A stretch of 34,541 nt of DNA from a virus. Its lineage: Duplodnaviria > Caudoviricetes. A program made the position numbers and the translations under genes. A model generated the notes under the pieces. That model was not told the origin of the DNA. It did no database searches and saw nothing but the letters and a program-made list of their open reading frames with translations. Positions 6,807 to 34,539 of this stretch are shown here, piece after piece. Every line of letters starts with the position of its first letter. Position 1 is the stretch's first letter. The DNA is taken from the IMG/VR virus record IMGVR_UViG_3300020044_003104, positions 1-34,541 of that record. One strand, given 5' to 3'.

Positions 6807-6857
6807 TGATGCCCCCTTATAAAAAGAGCTGTTTATTCTGTAAAGCGTTTTTTTCAT
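6807..6857 (-). promoter_or_regulatory. Sigma70-type early promoter, copy B (TTTACA-17-TATAAG)
   Basis: -35 at 6839-6844, -10 at 6816-6821. 43/51 nt identical to copy A at 12749-12799. Confidence 0.8.
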
Positions 6858-7029: not shown

Positions 7030-7607
7030 CTGACTGTAAATTCCCCATCAACCAATCGAAGGTGACCAAGCTCTTCAGCAATACGCAACCAACGCTCTGG
7101 TTTATCTGTAAGCTCAACAGGCTCGCCAACGCGCAGCGACATAATAAATTCATCGAACCTTGCTTGCGTGTGATTTGAACAGATCAGAAGTGCCTTGTCC
7201 TTTCGGGTCGTGCGCGGCGTGTAGCTATCCAATATCTGCAAGCACTGGCGAGGCGTCGGGAACCAATCAAGTTCTTTGCAGACGCGCTCTGTCATGTAGC
7301 TAAGGGCTTCCTTTGTGTAGCCACCTAGAATCCGTGCATAGACTGCTGTCCGCATCTGTCCGCTTTGCTCGTCGGTGTTCTTGCTTGGCAAGGTCGCTTC
7401 GATGAATTGCAGTTGCTTGGCAAGTTCGCGTGTTTCAACTGGGATGTTCTCAACAGGCATCGCTAAGGCAATCGACCGTAGTTCATCGCACTCTGCTACT
7501 GTAAGCTCAGAACGGCTCATCAGTTCGTCCATCCGCGACATATCGAAGTGCTGCGGCAAAGCCGTTTTCGTTTCTAGTGTTACCAGTTGTCCGATTTGCT
7601 GCGCCAT
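7026..7607 (-). CDS. Putative helicase loader / replication protein P-like
   Basis: Follows the initiator. 'YARILGGYTKEAL...CKELDWFPTPRQC' resembles the FPT motif of phage loader/G39P-like proteins. Confidence 0.55.
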   Translation of the reverse strand: MAQQIGQLVTLETKTALPQHFDMSRMDELMSRSELTVAECDELRSIALAMPVENIPVETRELAKQLQFIEATLPSKNTDEQSGQMRTAVYARILGGYTKEALSYMTERVCKELDWFPTPRQCLQILDSYTPRTTRKDKALLICSNHTQARFDEFIMSLRVGEPVELTDKPERWLRIAEELGHLRLVDGEFTVR

Positions 7608-8217
7608 TTTTTTGCTCCTTAATTTCGTAAAGGTCTGTCCAGCTGTTCATTGTGCTGCGATCTAGAACTTCTGTTATGTTTTGGCCCTTGGCTCTCAATT
7701 TATCCAGTTTGCTGATAGCCTGATTGTAAGCCCTGTCCGTTAATGGTTTCTTGCGAAGCATACGCATCTCAACCCATCCATTCCAAGCGTCAACAGGAAT
7801 CCAATCTGGAAGCTCCGCTCTTATATACTTAATTGGTTTATGATTTGTGTTTATATCTGGTATAGGTTCGCCCTTCTGGTCATTTTCATTTGTCTTTTTG
7901 GGCAAATGGATTTCTTCCTTTAGGCAAGTCGGTGAATACCATTTCGTCCGATCATATGCAGACTTGTTAAAGCATCCACTTGCAATCAAACCATCGCTTT
8001 CAAGCTTGTCTAATGCAGTCCGTATTTGCTTGCCAGTTAGGTAAGGAAACAGCTCTGAAAACGCAGACACACTGTTATATGTCCACCAACGCCCTTCATA
8101 AAAATGGCGTCCATTGGCAGCATTCTTTTCAGCCCAGTAAAAAAGGTTCTGATAAATCACGGCAGCGTTGAGACCAACACGAGCCGCGATCGCTGGATCA
8201 AATTGATGTGCGCTCAT
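7507..8217 (-). CDS. Phage replication initiator (lambda O-like organisation, N-terminal wHTH)
   Basis: N-terminal 'GLNAAVIYQNL..W...WTYNS...QIRTALDKL' wHTH, an iteron-bearing linker, and C-terminal 'LPDWIPVDAWNGWVEMR...RSTMNSW'. Confidence 0.8.
   Translation of the reverse strand: MSAHQFDPAIAARVGLNAAVIYQNLFYWAEKNAANGRHFYEGRWWTYNSVSAFSELFPYLTGKQIRTALDKLESDGLIASGCFNKSAYDRTKWYSPTCLKEEIHLPKKTNENDQKGEPIPDINTNHKPIKYIRAELPDWIPVDAWNGWVEMRMLRKKPLTDRAYNQAISKLDKLRAKGQNITEVLDRSTMNSWTDLYEIKEQKNGAANRTTGNTRNENGFAAALRYVADGRTDEPF
7820..7930. promoter_or_regulatory. Candidate replication origin inside the initiator gene
   Basis: Three degenerate ~21-bp repeats (minus strand TTGCCTAAAGGAAGAAAT / TTGCCCAAAAAGACAAAT / ATGACCAGAAGGGCGAAC) next to an AT-rich tract at 7820-7860. 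Confidence 0.55.
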
Positions 8218-8633
8218 TTCACGCCCTTTCTAGAATTGCATGAACGACACATTGTTTGCAGATTATCGAACGATGTCGTGCCACCCTTAATTTCTGGAAT
8301 TATATGGTCGCAGCACAAATCTAAATGAGTCTCGCAAGAAACGCACCTGTATAAATCCCTCTCCATTACGGACTTGGATAATTTACGGCCTATTTTTGCT
8401 TTTTGATATAGTTTAGATTTTGACGTATTGTCATGTGGCCAACTGTAACCATTGCTCTTTATCATATCAGCAAATTGCTCAAAAACCCAGCCGCCTTGAC
8501 CGTCTCCCCAGTGCCAATACCATCCTAAATCACTTTTTATGATTTCTAGGGAATTAAAAAAACGGTCAACGGCTTGAGATTCTAAACTCTCATCAAGCTC
8601 TTGCGCGATGGTTCTGTGGCGTGTATTACTCAT
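8214..8633 (-). CDS. HNH endonuclease
   Basis: CVSC...DHIIPEIKGG...NLQTMCRSCNSRKG; GAAGGAGG SD. Confidence 0.9.
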   Translation of the reverse strand: MSNTRHRTIAQELDESLESQAVDRFFNSLEIIKSDLGWYWHWGDGQGGWVFEQFADMIKSNGYSWPHDNTSKSKLYQKAKIGRKLSKSVMERDLYRCVSCETHLDLCCDHIIPEIKGGTTSFDNLQTMCRSCNSRKGVK

Positions 8634-8666
8634 TACAGCGATGCCTCCTTCTGCTAGGCGTTGTTA

Positions 8667-8708
8667 GAGCGGGTTGAGTGCCTTTCCTCTCTTGGGCACT
8701 CCCCGCTC
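8667..8708 (-). promoter_or_regulatory. Long stem-loop in the 5' leader of the HNH/replication operon
   Basis: GAGCGGG/CCCGCTC and GAGTGCC/GGCACTC pair to form a ~14-bp interrupted stem, about 35 nt upstream of the HNH start. Confidence 0.55.
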
Positions 8709-8760
8709 GCTCTTACATAACTCAAAACGCGCATTAGTAAAACATAATTTTTGCGACTGA

Positions 8761-8790
8761 TTGACCAGCAATACGCTATCAGCGTATCTT
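8761..8790 (+). promoter_or_regulatory. Candidate promoter TTGACC-18-TATCTT with a palindromic operator in the spacer
   Basis: ATACGCT-ATC-AGCGTAT perfect inverted repeat at 8771-8787. Confidence 0.5.
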
Positions 8791-8795
8791 GCGTG

Positions 8796-8847
8796 GATTG
8801 GTATCTCCTTACCGAACGAACTGGGTGGCTTCGGTCACCCTTTTTTT
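8796..8847 (+). ncRNA. Candidate small regulatory RNA with an anti-Shine-Dalgarno loop
   Basis: Upstream promoter-like element, hairpin UUGGUA-UCUCCU-UACCGA, then an intrinsic terminator. No + strand ORF in the interval. Confidence 0.55.
8823..8847 (+). terminator. Rho-independent terminator
   Basis: GGGTGGC-TTCG-GTCACCC followed by T7. Confidence 0.85.
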
Positions 8848-9190
8848 ATTTGGTCTCACGCAGCTGATGGTGCGGGAATAGCGCAATAAACACAGCGCGA
8901 CGCAGGGGCCAATCCCTAACGACGACTCCCTTAACGTCTTCCGTAATTTGGATTCCGTTTTCGATGTATTCGAAGTCAGATTTGTAACCAACGCGTCGGC
9001 CATTACCGTGCTTTAGCTGGCGACCGTTGATTACGAACCAGTATTGCGGGTGAATGATTAGGTCACTGATAGCGCCAGCCGCTTGCAGATCATGTAGCTC
9101 GTTGCACCTAATAGCCTCTCGCTTGCTGTCATGAGTATGCCCAGCCCTGCATTGAGACTTGACAGCACGGTATTTGCCGAAACGCCTCAT
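8846..9190 (-). CDS. DUF1064-like PD-(D/E)XK nuclease
   Basis: KYRAVK...HDSKREA...IHPQY...YKSDFEY...EDVKG pattern. Confidence 0.85.
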   Translation of the reverse strand: MRRFGKYRAVKSQCRAGHTHDSKREAIRCNELHDLQAAGAISDLIIHPQYWFVINGRQLKHGNGRRVGYKSDFEYIENGIQITEDVKGVVVRDWPLRRAVFIALFPHHQLRETK

Positions 9191-9393
9191 GCCTTTAGTT
9201 TTTGCTCAACCAAGCGGTCAAGCGCATCATTGGCCAGCAGCCATGCGCCAAGGGTCGGTTCGTTGCGTTTGCTTTTCCAGTTGGACAGCGTGACGCGAGT
9301 AAGGCCAGCTTCGTTTGCTATCTGATACGCCCTGATTTTATGCGCCCTGGCAAGGTCGTAAAAATCTGCAATAGCTTGGTCTACGTTTGTCAT
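9187..9393 (-). CDS. Cro-like XRE HTH regulator
   Basis: YQIANEAGLTRVTLSNWKSKRNEPTL; first gene of the leftward operon at the divergent control region. Confidence 0.85.
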   Translation of the reverse strand: MTNVDQAIADFYDLARAHKIRAYQIANEAGLTRVTLSNWKSKRNEPTLGAWLLANDALDRLVEQKLKA

Positions 9394-9484
9394 TTTAAAC
9401 TTTCTTTTGCCTGATAATAAAAAACGCTTTTAATCTTTGTTGAATTGCTTACAAGGGGTTTGGCAAATAAAAGGAGACACCAAA

Positions 9485-10045
9485 ATGCCAGTTCATAAAA
9501 AGATTAACGAAGCGCGGATTGCCTTCCACGCATTGCCGCTGAAAAAGTCCGGCCATAACACGTTTGCTGGATACAAATATTTCGAGCTTGCCGACTTTGT
9601 GATTCCAGCCCTTCGCATCTTTAACGATGTTGGGCTTTGCGCGATTATAAGCTTTTCGGAAACCACAGCATCGATGCACATCGTTGATGTCGAAGATGGT
9701 TCGCAGGTTATCATTCACAGCCCAATGGGTTCAGCCAATCTTAAAGGCTGCCACGAGATACAGAACATTGGCGCGTGTGAGACTTACTCAACCCGCTATC
9801 TTTGGACAGCAGCCCTTTGCATCGTCGAGCATGACGCACTGGATGCAACCACAGGCAAGAGCGAACCAGCGCCTCGCATTAAGTTTATCAGCGATAAGCA
9901 GTTTGCTGAATTGCAAGCATTGGTAGACAAAACCAAGACTGACATGGCTTTGCTCTGCAAGCATTACAAAATCAGCGCACTCAAGGAATTGCAGGAAACC
10001 CGCTTTGATGCGGTTAAGGCTGCATTAGAAAAGAAGCTGGCATGA
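9485..10045 (+). CDS. erf: ERF-family single-strand annealing protein
   Basis: LKKSGHNTFAGYKYFELADF...IQNIGACETYSTRYLW...D.D pattern; AAGGAG SD before ATG 9485. Confidence 0.85.
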   Translation: MPVHKKINEARIAFHALPLKKSGHNTFAGYKYFELADFVIPALRIFNDVGLCAIISFSETTASMHIVDVEDGSQVIIHSPMGSANLKGCHEIQNIGACETYSTRYLWTAALCIVEHDALDATTGKSEPAPRIKFISDKQFAELQALVDKTKTDMALLCKHYKISALKELQETRFDAVKAALEKKLA

Positions 10046-10299: not shown

Positions 10300-10925
10300 C
10301 AGACGCAGCAATTATCCAACGCAGCCCAGAATGGTTTGCAGCACGTTGTGGGAGCCTTGGCGCTTCCCAACTGGCGGACGCCCTAGCCAAGACCAAATCA
10401 GGCTGGGGAGCGTCACGCGCCAACCTTCGCGCCAAGCTTGTGGTCGAAAGGCTCACAGGCCAGCAAGAGGACGGATTCTCCAGTGCAGCTATGCTCTGGG
10501 GAGTTGAGAAAGAGGATGAGGCTAGAATCGCCTACAGCTTCATGACAGGCCATGATGTGACTGAGGTGGGTCTATATAAGCATCCTACCATTATCGGCAC
10601 TCACGCCAGCCCTGACGGGCTTGTGGGCGACGATGGCTGCATAGAGATTAAATGCCCAAACTCTGCCACACACATAGAAGTGCTCAAAACTAATCAAATC
10701 GCGCACAAATATATACTCCAGATGCAATGGCAGATGGCTTGCGCCGATCGTCAATGGTGCGATTTCGTAAGCTTCGATCCACGAATGCCAGACCATCTAA
10801 TGCTTTACATTGCACGGGTGCAGCGCGACAATGATATGCTGGCGACTTTGGAATCAGAGGTTGCCGCATTTCTAGTAGAAGTCGATGAAGACGTAAAAGC
10901 GTTATCAAAACTAGGAGACCAATAA
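10296..10925 (+). CDS. YqaJ/lambda-exonuclease family protein
   Basis: QRSPEWFAARCG.LGAS, ASPDGLV, IEIKCP, QMQWQM, WCDFVSFDPR. Confidence 0.93.
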   Translation: MTDAAIIQRSPEWFAARCGSLGASQLADALAKTKSGWGASRANLRAKLVVERLTGQQEDGFSSAAMLWGVEKEDEARIAYSFMTGHDVTEVGLYKHPTIIGTHASPDGLVGDDGCIEIKCPNSATHIEVLKTNQIAHKYILQMQWQMACADRQWCDFVSFDPRMPDHLMLYIARVQRDNDMLATLESEVAAFLVEVDEDVKALSKLGDQ

Positions 10926-27397: not shown

Positions 27398-27697
27398 TTA
27401 AACGCCGCCGTTGCCTGTCTGAATATTGAGCGTTGTGCCAGAAGCCGAAATGTGTGCCAGCTTTGTAAAGCCATTTGCTTTGCGGATAATAACTTCGCTG
27501 CCAGCACGAACCGCTAAGTCAGCCGTTGTTGCAGTCGCCGCAGTCTCACCGATGCGAACGTAACAGACGTTTGCGCCAGTGTTTACCAAACGGACGGAAT
27601 TATCATCTCCAGAAATATCCACCGATGCAGATGCAGCCGCAGGAGTTGCAACAATGTTCGATCCATAATTAGGAGCAAAAGGGTTTATATAAGACAT
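27398..27697 (-). CDS. Putative small virion protein (99 aa)
   Basis: Coupled (TAATG) to the upstream gene; beta-rich. Confidence 0.65.
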   Translation of the reverse strand: MSYINPFAPNYGSNIVATPAAASASVDISGDDNSVRLVNTGANVCYVRIGETAATATTADLAVRAGSEVIIRKANGFTKLAHISASGTTLNIQTGNGGV

Positions 27698-28023
27698 TAT
27701 CCGACCTTCCAGTTTGTGCCATCGCTATAGACGGGAACCTTGTTAGCGCCACCACCAGCAACAGTAGCTGCAAATGTTGTACTGCTTCCATCAGTAATAA
27801 ATGCGCGGGCTCCAGCATTGCCTACAGCAGCGGGAAGCTGGGCATAGGTAACAGGCGTTGTCTGCACTGATGAACAAGTGACAGCGCCGAAGTTTACCTG
27901 AACATATTCAATCAGAGTTGTAACAGAGCAACGACGAGCGTCACCTTGGTTCGTTACATACAACGGTAACTGATCTCCGCCATGAACCTGTGTTACGGTT
28001 GGTAGCTGGTTAATTGTAGGCAT
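27697..28023 (-). CDS. Putative virion protein (108 aa)
   Basis: C-terminal 'LPAA..NAGARAFITD...VPVYSDGTNWKVG' motif seen in phage fibre/spike proteins. Confidence 0.7.
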   Translation of the reverse strand: MPTINQLPTVTQVHGGDQLPLYVTNQGDARRCSVTTLIEYVQVNFGAVTCSSVQTTPVTYAQLPAAVGNAGARAFITDGSSTTFAATVAGGGANKVPVYSDGTNWKVG

Positions 28024-28841: not shown

Positions 28842-29014
28842 TTCTTTTTGCCTTTCATTGGCTTTGCAGTCTTTGCTGATGCGATGAAGTCAGCCTTTGT
28901 TGGCGCACCTTTGCTGCCGACCTTCTTCATGCGCTCTGGTGTTTTGCCAGCAGCCTTCTGAGCCTTGATGCGCTTACGCTTCGCATTGATATTAGCATAC
29001 AAGCCCATCTTCAT
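28838..29014 (-). CDS. 58-aa Lys-rich protein (MKMGLYANINAKRKRIKAQKAAGK...KPMKGKKK)
   Basis: Read by hand; ATGA and GTGA overlaps with neighbours. Confidence 0.8.
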   Translation of the reverse strand: MKMGLYANINAKRKRIKAQKAAGKTPERMKKVGSKGAPTKADFIASAKTAKPMKGKKK

Positions 29015-29184
29015 TTCTTTGCCTTCCGCTTAGGAGCCTTTGATGGCTTCCCTGCTTTCATGGCAGCATCGCGTGCTACATTCAGTGCAATGGCGATGGC
29101 TTGTTTTTTAGGGCGACCAGCCTTTTCTTCCATCTTGATATTCTTGCCGATGCTTGCGCGGCTGAAACCTTTTTTCAATGGCAT
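29011..29184 (-). CDS. 57-aa Lys-rich protein (MPLKKGFSRASIGKNIK...KQAIAIAL...KRKAKK)
   Basis: Read by hand; AAGGAG SD; first gene after the coat terminator. Confidence 0.8.
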   Translation of the reverse strand: MPLKKGFSRASIGKNIKMEEKAGRPKKQAIAIALNVARDAAMKAGKPSKAPKRKAKK

Positions 29185-31473: not shown

Positions 31474-34400
31474 TCAAAAACCCATTGCCATTAAAAGCAA
31501 TGCGTTGTCGTTTTCTTGATCTAGCAGAAGGATTTCAATTGCCTCCTGCTCATCATCTAAGAATTGTTGAATCTCGTTTGCGGCAACTTTTAGGTCTTCA
31601 TTGAGACTGTTGTCATTCTGATCGTTTGAACCCTGGACGCTTAATTGTATTAGCAGTTTATCAAGCTGCCGTTGCAATGCGTCGGATGTGCCTTTTTCAT
31701 TTAGATAGGCATCTAATGTTCTGGCTGTTTTCTTTGCTACAGCCAGACTGCTTGTATTTAGAACATCGACATTCTTTGCAACCTGCTTGGCTGACAAAGC
31801 TGCTTCCAACATAGCGCGTTCGTTGGCGAAGCCTGTTTTCTTACGCTTAGTTCTTTTAGCTTTAGTGCTTGATGAATCCTCACCGCCGCCGCCACCAACT
31901 AATTGGACACCTGGCTGACTGACTGTAGCGGAATAGAAAATGTTCGTGTTGATGTAGAGCTGGGGTAGGAGTGTCTGCGCTCCACCAGCGATCGTAACGA
32001 TTGGGCTATAGAACACATTAGTGTTGTCATAGCGTGCAGGCGCAAGCGTGTTTGATGCTGCCACTGTGGGCGCATAGAATACATTTATATTATCGTAACG
32101 CGCAGGAGCAATCGTATTGCTTGTTGAAACCGTTGCTGCGTAAAACGTGTTTGGGTTAGTGTATAGAGCAGGAACAAGCGTCTGTGTGCCACTAGCTTGC
32201 GTAACCGTTGGCGTGTAAAATACGTTCGTATTATTATAGCGATTAGGCGCAAGCGTGTTACTTGTTGAGACCGTTGCGTTGTAGAAGACATTTGTATTGT
32301 CGTAACGCGCTGGAGTAAGCGTATTGCTTGCTACAACTGTAGCTGCGTAAAATACGTTCGTATTGTCGTAACGTGCAGGATTAACCGTATTGCTTGCCGT
32401 AACTGTAGCCGCGTAGAACGTGTTTACGTTTGAATACAGGCTCGGCAAAAGAGACTGCGGTGGGCCTGTCTGCGTTATTGTTGTCAGGTAAAAAGTGTTA
32501 GTGTTGGTGAACAGCGATGGGATCAGCGTTTGCGTACCCGATGGAGCAGCCGTGAATATCACGTTTAGGTTGTTGCCGCCGTCAGTTGAGTTTACACCGA
32601 CATAGAAGCGGTTGGCTTGGTTTACGCCAATGTCCTTGACGCTCAGATAGTCAATGCCGCTGGTTACGTTGGTCAGGTTAAACGTGCGGCGGGTTCCTGC
32701 GGTGTTGCTGTCTACCGTAACGACATTGCCTACTGTGCCTGTGATGCTCCAAGTGTCGATAGTGCCTTGGTTGGCATTAAGGCGAATAGTATGAGCTACG
32801 GTCTTTGTAGACGCTAGTTCAGTAAATGAGTTTGTGCCTGATAGCGATGTTGTTGATGTGCCTGTAGCGCCGCCGATGGTAAGTTTGTTGTATGATAGGG
32901 AGCCACCAGCAAAAATCCTAGTACCAGTCGTGGTGTTAGACAGCAGAATGTTGGCAGTATCTTTGTTAAATGTGAGGCTAGTTGTGGTTGCTAAATTCCA
33001 CACAGTTCCCGTATCACTTATTGTCCATAGACCAGAACCCATAGTTATGGTTCTGGTATTGCTATTACTGGAAGAAAAAGCTCTGCAAATCAGATTATAA
33101 TTGAACGCGTCAAACGTGCCGCTAGTGTGCGTAATCTGGTTGCTTGCGGTGTAAGCATCCCCAAGTCGAAACGTGCCGCTTGGAGCATTAACCGTAATCT
33201 GGAACGTGATGATTTTACCAGCACTAGTGAACACCATCGTGCTGCGGCCAGAGAAGGTTTGAGTAGAAGTGCCAGATACAGTTATACCAGAGCCAAGCGT
33301 GTAGGAGCCGTAACGGTTTACTCCCACGTTGTGGTTGAGCGTGATGCCTGTGGTTCTTGTAGAACAATCAAGACTACCAATGTTAAAAGCAGTGCCTAAT
33401 GCAAGCGTTCCTGTTAGCGTGGTGGCGTTGTCAATTACAGCCGTGTCTTGAGCCAGTGGGAAGTAAATTGTATTTGCGCTTCCGCCAGAAGTATCTGACC
33501 ACGCATTGCTGTTCCAGTTTGTAAGCGTGCCAACGCGATATACCGTCTTTGCCGCAGGGAACGTGATCCCACTGTTGCCACCGCAGTCGCCACCACGAGT
33601 GGGCGAGATAGGCGCTGCCGCCCCAGCAATGGTGATGTCACGGAAGTCACAGTCATTAGCAGATACAGCCGCACAGGTGAGGGTGCGTGTTGTGCCAATG
33701 ATATTGGACTGGACAAAGCCCCGCGCAACAGCAGACGAGCCAGCGCAAGTGAAAGTGCCGCTGACGGTTTGGTCGGCAGCGATAAACAGTTGGGTTAGGC
33801 CACTTCCGTTGGCGGTAAGCGTCAGGTTGTTAAATGTGTTTGCGCCCGTGATTTGGCGGGCTCCAGCGGATGTGTTGGTAAAAGAGACGTTGTAGAAAGT
33901 TTGACCGCCGCCGCTAAGAGTAGCACTTGAACTAGATAAATTAAGCTGAGAGGTTCCTGCGTTAAACGTGAGGTTTGTAGATGTAGTAAAGTCTATACCA
34001 GTGCTACCCGAAGATAAAGTTAAGGTGCTTGACCCCAGAGAAATAGTTCTGACGTTGGAGTTAGATGATGAAACCGAAACTCCCGTAACGCTGAAATTTG
34101 CAGTGTTAAATGTTCCTTGCGTAACAGTCAGTGTTCTTCCGCTTATGTTCAGCGCATCGCCAAGCGTTAGTGTAATACCTGAGCCGTCAACCACCACGTT
34201 AGTGAACGACTTGCCCGCAGTCGTTAGCGTCCCCGTTCCAGTGATTGTCATTGTTCCGGTGTGGGTGTAAGTCATGCCCGCAACAAGCGTCACGCTGCCT
34301 GCTACGGTAATAGCCCCTGTGCCAGCAATCGTCCCAGCAAAGCCCGTACAGTTAATTGACTTCGCGCCAGTGTTGCCCGTGGCAATCGTGCAAGTGCCAG

Positions 34401-34539
34401 TGGATAAGGCGCTAAAAAACACATCATCAGCGGTAGTTGGAACGGACGCGCCACCAGCACCGCCAGAGGTAGTTGCCCACTTAGTCCCTGCCGTGCCGTC
34501 CCAAGATGCCGTGCCACCTACCCAATAACGATCAGCCAT
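31474..34539 (-). CDS. 1021-aa Thr/Gly/Asn-rich fibre/adhesin-like virion protein
   Basis: Two tandem ~330-aa beta-rich modules, nine 22-25-aa repeats, a basic linker and a helical C-terminus. Confidence 0.75.
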   Translation of the reverse strand: MADRYWVGGTASWDGTAGTKWATTSGGAGGASVPTTADDVFFSALSTGTCTIATGNTGAKSINCTGFAGTIAGTGAITVAGSVTLVAGMTYTHTGTMTITGTGTLTTAGKSFTNVVVDGSGITLTLGDALNISGRTLTVTQGTFNTANFSVTGVSVSSSNSNVRTISLGSSTLTLSSGSTGIDFTTSTNLTFNAGTSQLNLSSSSATLSGGGQTFYNVSFTNTSAGARQITGANTFNNLTLTANGSGLTQLFIAADQTVSGTFTCAGSSAVARGFVQSNIIGTTRTLTCAAVSANDCDFRDITIAGAAAPISPTRGGDCGGNSGITFPAAKTVYRVGTLTNWNSNAWSDTSGGSANTIYFPLAQDTAVIDNATTLTGTLALGTAFNIGSLDCSTRTTGITLNHNVGVNRYGSYTLGSGITVSGTSTQTFSGRSTMVFTSAGKIITFQITVNAPSGTFRLGDAYTASNQITHTSGTFDAFNYNLICRAFSSSNSNTRTITMGSGLWTISDTGTVWNLATTTSLTFNKDTANILLSNTTTGTRIFAGGSLSYNKLTIGGATGTSTTSLSGTNSFTELASTKTVAHTIRLNANQGTIDTWSITGTVGNVVTVDSNTAGTRRTFNLTNVTSGIDYLSVKDIGVNQANRFYVGVNSTDGGNNLNVIFTAAPSGTQTLIPSLFTNTNTFYLTTITQTGPPQSLLPSLYSNVNTFYAATVTASNTVNPARYDNTNVFYAATVVASNTLTPARYDNTNVFYNATVSTSNTLAPNRYNNTNVFYTPTVTQASGTQTLVPALYTNPNTFYAATVSTSNTIAPARYDNINVFYAPTVAASNTLAPARYDNTNVFYSPIVTIAGGAQTLLPQLYINTNIFYSATVSQPGVQLVGGGGGEDSSSTKAKRTKRKKTGFANERAMLEAALSAKQVAKNVDVLNTSSLAVAKKTARTLDAYLNEKGTSDALQRQLDKLLIQLSVQGSNDQNDNSLNEDLKVAANEIQQFLDDEQEAIEILLLDQENDNALLLMAMGF
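31911..32535 (-). repeat. 9 x 66-75-bp coding tandem repeat (PARYDNTNVFYAATV...)
   Basis: Visible in both protein and DNA. Confidence 0.9.

Follow-up and report, generated by a model that had tools for sequence, protein, structure and literature searches.

Genome setting and anatomy of the RNA-B unit

The stretch of DNA that we analyzed (the window) is a complete virus record of 34,541 bases with direct terminal repeats. From its 215 listed open reading frames (ORFs), 54 proteins were scanned against PHROG and 19 against Pfam. By these scans, the genome is that of a P22-like podophage. The minus strand carries portal, terminase, coat, and DNA-ejection genes, and the plus strand carries a recombination operon (i.e., erf, a YqaJ exonuclease gene, a wHTH gene, NinB, and SSB), whose first gene, erf, was assigned to the ERF family (PF04404). 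A divergent minus-strand run comprises genes for a small HTH protein (9187 to 9393), a Holliday junction resolvase-like protein (8846 to 9190; PHROG 190, DUF1064), an HNH endonuclease (8214 to 8633), and an O-like replication initiator (rep; 7507 to 8217; PHROG 11233 and 678). The window encodes two small HTH proteins, and neither an integrase nor a long CI-like protein was recognized among the scanned proteins (54 of 215 ORFs). A 1021-aa ORF (31474 to 34539, minus strand) that adjoins the scaffold gene and reaches the window end matched nothing in PHROG or Pfam. In the GenBank phage collection, blastn searches with the unit described below gave short terminator matches only, and tblastn searches gave only distant relatives of rep and Erf; thus, no cultured relative or host could be assigned. 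A genome scan with rep returned three weak loci, the best of which was a Sphingobium metagenome-assembled genome (43% over half the protein).

A pattern search revealed a promoter-like motif (AAAAACGCTTTTA-N-TACAAG) before the recombination operon (9420 to 9455, plus strand), where it may serve as the promoter, and a second copy at 6816-6852 on the minus strand. The pattern, which was derived from these loci, has two matches in the window and none in 100 shuffles, and the copy before the recombination operon is kept in relatives. In the form AAAAACGCTTT(T)A-N-TAYAAG, the motif is repeated before the recombination operon and before the gene block that follows rep, with a related form at 8714 to 8750 (minus strand); in relatives, a motif of this type also precedes the rep leader. 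It is possibly the binding site of a Cro-like protein.

Among the minus-strand genes, a first-pass annotation had noticed a plus-strand unit, here called RNA-B, and all of its elements were found where they had been placed. The promoter-like site (8761 to 8790), whose activity is predicted, consists of a -35 box (TTGACC, 8761 to 8766), an 18-nt spacer, and a -10 box (TATCTT, 8785 to 8790), followed by a GC-rich stretch. Next come a 5' hairpin (8797 to 8816; stem UUGGUA/UACCGA), whose UCUCCU loop presents the anti-SD core CUCCU(U) within the presumed seed (8798 to 8810), and an intrinsic-terminator-like hairpin (8823 to 8847), in which the stem GGGUGGC-UUCG-GUCACCC (8823 to 8840) precedes a U7 tract (8841 to 8847). 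The last two U's of this tract overlap the stop codon of the resolvase-like gene (8846 to 8848). The terminator was the top-listed one in a scan of the window, and the 52-nt RNA folds better on the plus strand (z = -3.6) than on the minus strand (z = -1.5). The 5' stem is weak (5.7 kcal/mol to open 13 nt). A consensus promoter scan of the window found 21 sites versus 22.5 expected, so that the RNA-B promoter match alone is at chance level, although the promoter is kept in relatives. The annotation's claim that there is no ORF holds for the unit itself, which is noncoding, but a 64-codon minus-strand ORF (8809 to 9003; no PHROG match) ends inside it. At the sequence level, RNA-B has the features of a trans-encoded base-pairing sRNA, i.e., its own promoter, a short seed, an intrinsic terminator with a U tail, and no ORF. 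An Rfam scan of the whole window (E ≤ 5) returned only two chance snoRNA matches elsewhere.

Conservation of RNA-B and the neighboring module A

Relatives were collected from IMG/VR by searches with Erf, resolvase, and rep (80, 80, 70, and 80 loci, on largely overlapping contigs). The unit is present in 50 and absent in 6 of the 56 distinct combinations of unit and cro/first-gene intergenic region. A covariance model (R2) found one strong copy in 20 of 27 records, which we had chosen ourselves, and none in five complete records. Among 59 promoter-plus-RNA variants, the -35 box is TTGAC in 57 and the -10 box starts with TAT in 58, while the 17- to 18-nt spacers between these boxes occur in 45 different sequences. 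All 41 distinct RNA-B variants fold better on the plus strand, as does the first hairpin alone in 21 of 26 cases. In an alignment of 33 RNA-B sequences, 97.7% of the cells pair (5' helix, 94%; terminator, 100%). Covariation is no proof of this structure, since the changes in the 5' stem are mostly one-sided and of the G-U type, with a single two-sided change, and shuffles were not exceeded. When units were located by promoter and terminator only (243 of 283 redundant loci), i.e., without using the loop, CTCCT was found in 43 of the 43 distinct 5' segments, while the 1 to 3 nt between GGU and CUCCU occurred in ten forms. A start codon stands behind the opposite-strand AGGAG in just 4 of 38 variants, and on this ground a small protein encoded on the unit's minus strand was rejected.

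The RNA-B unit is therefore probably a real sRNA gene. Given the boxes kept against 45 different spacers, the strand-biased folding, the invariant CTCCT, and the rarity of an opposite-strand start codon, it is highly probable from sequence comparison that a plus-strand RNA is transcribed and is under selection for its anti-SD loop. In some relatives, the UUCG loop of the terminator is replaced by a nested hairpin of about 20 nt with a pyrimidine-rich loop, with the terminator stem and U tract kept (L013:3283-3363, L018:3258-3363, L031:3259-3364, L022, L032, and L066); the nested hairpin is duplicated in L018 and L031, and the RNA lengths range from 71 to 97 nt.

RNA-B was not found outside its phage group in the GenBank phages, pattern scans, bacterial genomes, and part of the metagenomes. 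Across 151 genomes of the order of G028, R2 gave a match at E ≤ 0.01 in 59, and the eight best matches were rejected as terminators at gene ends; the two with a UCCCCU hairpin have no TTGAC box upstream. In these two bacterial loci (L565:1501-1555, minus strand, and L566:1501-1555, plus strand; about 40 bits), the UCCCCU-loop hairpin, which is similar to RNA-B, precedes the terminator at the gene end and lies near an HTH gene and terminase-like genes. A pattern scan of 5 of 64 metagenome parts yielded 118 matches, of which 4 passed the promoter and terminator filter; 3 belong to the RNA-B family, and 1 is spurious. Pattern matches where T4-like gp32 and coat-like genes end were judged by eye to be due to chance. 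No description of the element was found in the literature searched, and six motifs were not found in the three supplementary files of PMC10690425 that were searched; the motif may be among the 10,006 candidate RNAs of that study.

Adjoining RNA-B, between the unit and rep, lies a second, probable antisense module (module A; 8601 to 8741). The first-pass annotation had missed this module at the rep leader, as well as the relatives in which the RNA-B hairpin itself is cis-complementary to the leader RBS. The rep leader frame (8214 to 8633, minus strand) contains an HNH endonuclease (PF01844) fused in frame after codon 11, and the ATGA overlap with rep is kept. In 48 of 54 module A variants, the leader is 15 codons long with a stop codon overlapping the rep ATG (ATGA); coupling of this leader to rep translation is inferred from the arrangement. 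HNH genes are likewise fused in frame into the leader in L059, L065/L317, and L293, and, as in the window, the SD and start of the leader are used. On the sense strand, module A comprises a hairpin and an SD, followed by the leader ORF, with a putative promoter for leader and rep (TTTACT-16-TATGTA, 8714 to 8741, minus strand) that resembles a motif in relatives. On the antisense (plus) strand, a promoter-like site (TTGCGC-17-TATTAC, 8601 to 8629) lies inside the leader frame; its -35 box is TTGCGT/C in 55 of 68 variants, and its -10 box is TATTAC in 54 of 68. The predicted antisense RNA has two hairpins (8637 to 8709; z = -6.1), followed by no U tract. The first, which covers the complement of the leader SD (8644 to 8650), has its better fold on the antisense strand in all 68 variants. 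Within it, the sequence complementary to the SD is not fixed (CTCCT in 41 of 68, CTTTC in 15 of 68), as would be expected of a cis-acting RNA. Module A is thus a candidate for CopA/tap-like replication control. Several relatives have module A only, without the RNA-B unit. In L051, L070, and L259, the two hairpins of module A are replaced by an RNA-B hairpin and terminator, and the RNA-B "seed" is the exact complement of the rep-leader SD and ATG. This replacement indicates that RNA-B can occupy the leader slot and is built like a rep-leader antisense cassette.

Predicted target sites and seed-target covariation

The proposed pairing of RNA-B with two early-gene RBSs was recovered. The reverse complement of the seed matches 12 of 13 nt at the erf RBS (9471 to 9483), and the seed pairs with the wHTH RBS (10913 to 10923) via a 2-nt bulge. 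Outside the unit, only the erf RBS has fewer than three mismatches to the seed complement anywhere in the window. The predicted main trans target is thus the erf RBS and start (9471 to 9487, plus strand), which ranks first of 41 candidate starts with a net cofold gain of -6.1 kcal/mol, and the predicted second target is the RBS of the 73-aa wHTH gene (PF14090; 10913 to 10927, plus strand; -7.7 kcal/mol). Elsewhere, the net gain is -5.9 kcal/mol for a 57-aa late gene and -1.3 kcal/mol for the unit's own rep leader, whose RBS was rejected as a weak candidate (own-seed test, p = 0.30). Given a perfect CUCCUU core, random 7-nt extensions bound erf as well (in energy) in 1.4% of cases and any of 13 SD-bearing starts as well in 17%, and a gap-free match to any of six AAGGAG starts with no more than one mismatch has a chance of 132/16384 (0.8%). 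At these chance levels, the erf match on one genome is suggestive but short of decisive. With a longer (21-nt) piece of RNA-B, erf was second of 54 starts.

Relatives broadened the proposed target from erf to its position. The first gene of the recombination operon is usually the best phage match, together with the wHTH gene. When each genome's own seed is used, this first gene stands at ranks 1 to 3 among 23 to 61 candidate starts in 16 of 20 genomes (six being fragments) and ranks poorly in two (10 and 13). In relatives with a 68-aa Cys-rich gene ahead of erf, it is this inserted gene that has the strong site; the candidate target is therefore the operon's first gene, whichever it is. The 68-aa protein is encoded by the first gene before erf in about one-quarter of the relatives (L070:3783-3986 and class-2 relatives). 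In 13 of 20 genomes, the 5' extension of the seed does better than random extensions (p < 0.05), but the CUCCU core alone already places the first gene at ranks 1 to 4 in 15 of 20.

The seeds and starts occur in natural variants among the phages (e.g., seeds GGUAUCUCCUU and GGUGCUCCUU; starts GGAGAUACC and GGAGCA). Three genomes combine seed GGUGCUCCUU with a different first gene, and in these the extension moves the first gene from ranks 16 to 28 to ranks 2 to 5. This seed goes with GGAGCA-type first-gene starts in 5 of 5 combinations, while three others have such starts without it, and it forms a 10-bp match at a wHTH gene with a GGAGCA-type start in 6 of 12 loci. The presence of GGAG also follows that of the unit: the first gene has it in 47 of 50 combinations with the unit versus 0 of 6 without, and the wHTH gene has it in 14 of 15 genomes with the unit versus 0 of 3 without. 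Most other genes have no GGAG in either group. erf itself has GGAG in 3 of 3 unit-less genomes, the wHTH gene has none in 9 of 59 unit-bearing loci, and GGAG occurs there in 2 distant unit-less loci. Two small late genes (29011 to 29184 and 27697 to 28023, minus strand) retain GGAG..ACC starts in the majority of genomes with the unit (11 of 14; 11 of 11 for GGAG), which possibly marks them as further targets or reflects an RBS habit.

Covariation of the seed with the erf RBS, a prediction of the earlier proposal, was not found (own-seed permutation, p = 0.61). Permutation of seeds over targets gave p = 0.09 for 25 types, p = 0.40 among GGAGA-type first-gene starts, and p = 0.77 among other starts; a value of 0.002 was obtained only if near-copies were counted. 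The wHTH gene gave p = 0.014 to 0.017 (uncorrected, one of 7 genes tested), and five further genes gave p = 0.09 to 0.94. The unit-less rows require 2 changes when placed on a tree of the resolvase-cro segment. Each of the presence/absence and seed/target associations corresponds to 1 to 2 supported independent pairs, too few for significance, and the GGUU/AACC association, with four independent pairs, shows no trend. Seed-target coevolution is therefore backed by 1 to 2 independent contrasts only, and, since seed and target lie about 670 nt apart, shared inheritance could be explained by linkage. The window seed mismatches its own erf RBS at the place where the RBSs of other phages would match. 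Judged from these variants, the 12/13 match at erf is one variant of a seed that tolerates 1 to 3 varying nucleotides between GGU and CUCCU.

Possible modes of action and known antisense RNAs

We predict, with a probability of about 50%, that RNA-B acts in trans on early-gene RBSs via its anti-SD loop. In this mechanism, the host housekeeping polymerase would transcribe an RNA of about 51 nt from about 8796 to 8798, and the exposed CUCCU loop would nucleate on the GGAG ribosome-binding sites of early genes. The weak 5' stem would then open, and GGU would pair with the ACC following the SD. The main docking sites would lie at erf, or whichever gene opens the recombination operon, and at the wHTH gene, and translation of these genes would be damped; as RNA-B accumulates over time, a delayed turn-down of recombination functions would result. 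The seed would be semigeneric, with selectivity arising from the rarity of GGAG among phage gene starts and not from a long erf-specific match. Several observations favor trans action, i.e., the promoter boxes kept against 45 spacers, the better plus-strand folding of all 41 RNAs, and a CUCCU that is retained in 43 of 43 segments despite ten flanking inserts and opposite-strand start codons in only 4 of 38 variants. The matching loop varies in the neighboring cis module A and not in RNA-B, own seeds place the first gene at ranks 1 to 3 in 16 of 20 genomes, and GGAG at the first gene and the wHTH gene tracks the presence of the unit. Against trans action stand the weak seed/RBS permutation results, with associations that amount to 1 to 2 independent contrasts, the sufficiency of the core alone for ranks 1 to 4 in 15 of 20 genomes, and the modest net binding (-6 to -8 kcal/mol).

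The annotation had likened RNA-B to OOP RNA of phage lambda. OOP (pO-oop-tO) shares 52 nt with cII and works via RNase III (PMC5869508; PMC12197685). Like OOP, RNA-B is short and antisense, has a promoter and an intrinsic terminator of its own, and ends at the 3' end of the preceding gene, just upstream of an O-like initiator; unlike OOP, it overlaps only 2 nt of the stop codon, its upstream gene is resolvase-like (DUF1064), and its anti-SD loop is invariant. The likeness thus extends to the arrangement and not to the 52-nt overlap. RNA-B might accordingly pair full-length in cis with a read-through cro-resolvase-rep message, and RNase III cleavage between the resolvase gene and the rep leader would tune replication; the erf match would then be a by-product that arises because the unit mirrors a typical phage RBS. 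Such pairing agrees with the position of RNA-B between an upstream gene and the O-like initiator and with the contact between its terminator and the upstream stop codon, which recalls how pO-oop-tO lies relative to cII (PMC5869508). It also agrees with the exact complementarity of the RNA-B hairpins to the rep-leader SD and ATG in L051, L070, and L259 and with the weak covariation of the seed with erf. Full complementarity requires no fixed sequence, yet CUCCU is invariant while the module A loop varies; with the 2-nt overlap versus 52 for OOP and an opposite-strand SD that has no start codon in 34 of 38 variants, this makes a purely OOP-type role unlikely. The two actions, cis and trans, are not exclusive.

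The invariant core with its freely varying extension would also fit many or generic targets, and RNA-B might be aimed mainly at host GGAG mRNAs (take-over) or at the rep leader of coinfecting relatives (exclusion). Seeds of the L038 group (GGUAUUCUCCUU) exactly complement the leader RBS of L051/L070, and the review PMC12197685 describes phage sRNAs that act on host mRNAs or serve exclusion. In the unit-less group, however, two early phage genes have lost GGAG, which speaks for targets in the phage, and L051-type phages are rare (3 records seen). We regard action mainly on outside targets as quite unlikely. It is improbable that the unit is nonfunctional as an sRNA, with a terminator that ends the module A antisense transcript or insulates the resolvase gene and a promoter and hairpin that are the remnant of a displaced rep-leader module. 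In favor of this reading, the second hairpin of module A has no U tract, RNA-B hairpins can stand in the leader module, and 6 of 56 combinations do without the unit. Against it, a remnant would not retain -35 and -10 boxes that stay constant beside 45 different spacers, nor a stem with G-U bias, nor a loop without variation, and the unit-less phages have module A without the RNA-B terminator.

Other small RNAs share single traits with RNA-B. The annotation had also pointed to alphaproteobacterial sRNAs with anti-SD loops. The cuckoo RNAs of Alphaproteobacteria (e.g., RSs0680 and C14) have 2 to 4 adjacent hairpins, each with the loop CCUCCUCCC (PMC4615179). RNA-B likewise displays an anti-SD motif in a hairpin loop, so that this part of the comparison stands, but it differs from the cuckoo family in having one hairpin with CUCCU(U), in being phage borne, and in having no Rfam match. 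The C4 RNA of phages P1 and P7 is an antisense RNA that blocks a translation start. C4 corresponds to Rfam family RF01695 (listed in PMC2864571); RNA-B differs from it in structure, and there was no match to the RF01695 covariance model in the whole window at E ≤ 5. The sar RNA of P22 and other phage antisense RNAs block translation initiation, sar acting in cis to ant (PMC12197685). Like sar and C4, RNA-B is a small phage RNA predicted to occlude an early-gene translation start; unlike in the case of sar, the predicted targets are recombination genes of a divergent operon and not in cis. Judged by sequence and structure, RNA-B appears to miss the defining features of OOP, the cuckoo RNAs, and C4, and it is predicted to work like a phage antisense or anti-SD sRNA of the kind reviewed in PMC12197685.

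In plasmid R1, CopA controls a leader ORF (tap) that is linked to repA (PMC4393325). Module A, and RNA-B in L051, L070, and L259, resemble this system in being predicted antisense over the leader RBS region and in the short leader ORF with its ATGA overlap with rep (48 of 54 module A variants plus L051, L070, and L259), coupling being inferred. They differ in the phage setting, in an antisense promoter inside the leader ORF, and in a predicted RNA that covers the leader SD directly; RNA-B in the window, in addition, has no leader or start codon behind it. The arrangement of module A hints that a phage replication initiator may be under antisense control of the plasmid type. A broader reading, which we offer as doubtful, is that these integrase-less podophages run their early program by tandem, interchangeable antisense cassettes instead of CI. 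RNA-A would act in cis to hold replication in check, as copy-control RNAs of plasmids do, and RNA-B would be a leaderless copy redirected in trans to a few GGAG early genes, with coevolving RBSs. If true, this arrangement would show a cis antisense RNA in the course of being turned into a trans sRNA, or vice versa, through the exchange of modules. Trans-acting sRNAs known from phages are few, and the origin of trans sRNAs is an open question. This phage group shows all three natural states, i.e., module A only, A and B together, and B hairpins inside the leader module, and its ten seed variants with matching RBS variants make cis versus trans action and coevolution testable by small reporters. 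Among the seed variants, that of G014 (L021), GGUGCCUCCUU, matches its own rep-leader RBS best (-19.3 kcal/mol), unlike the seeds of the other genomes.
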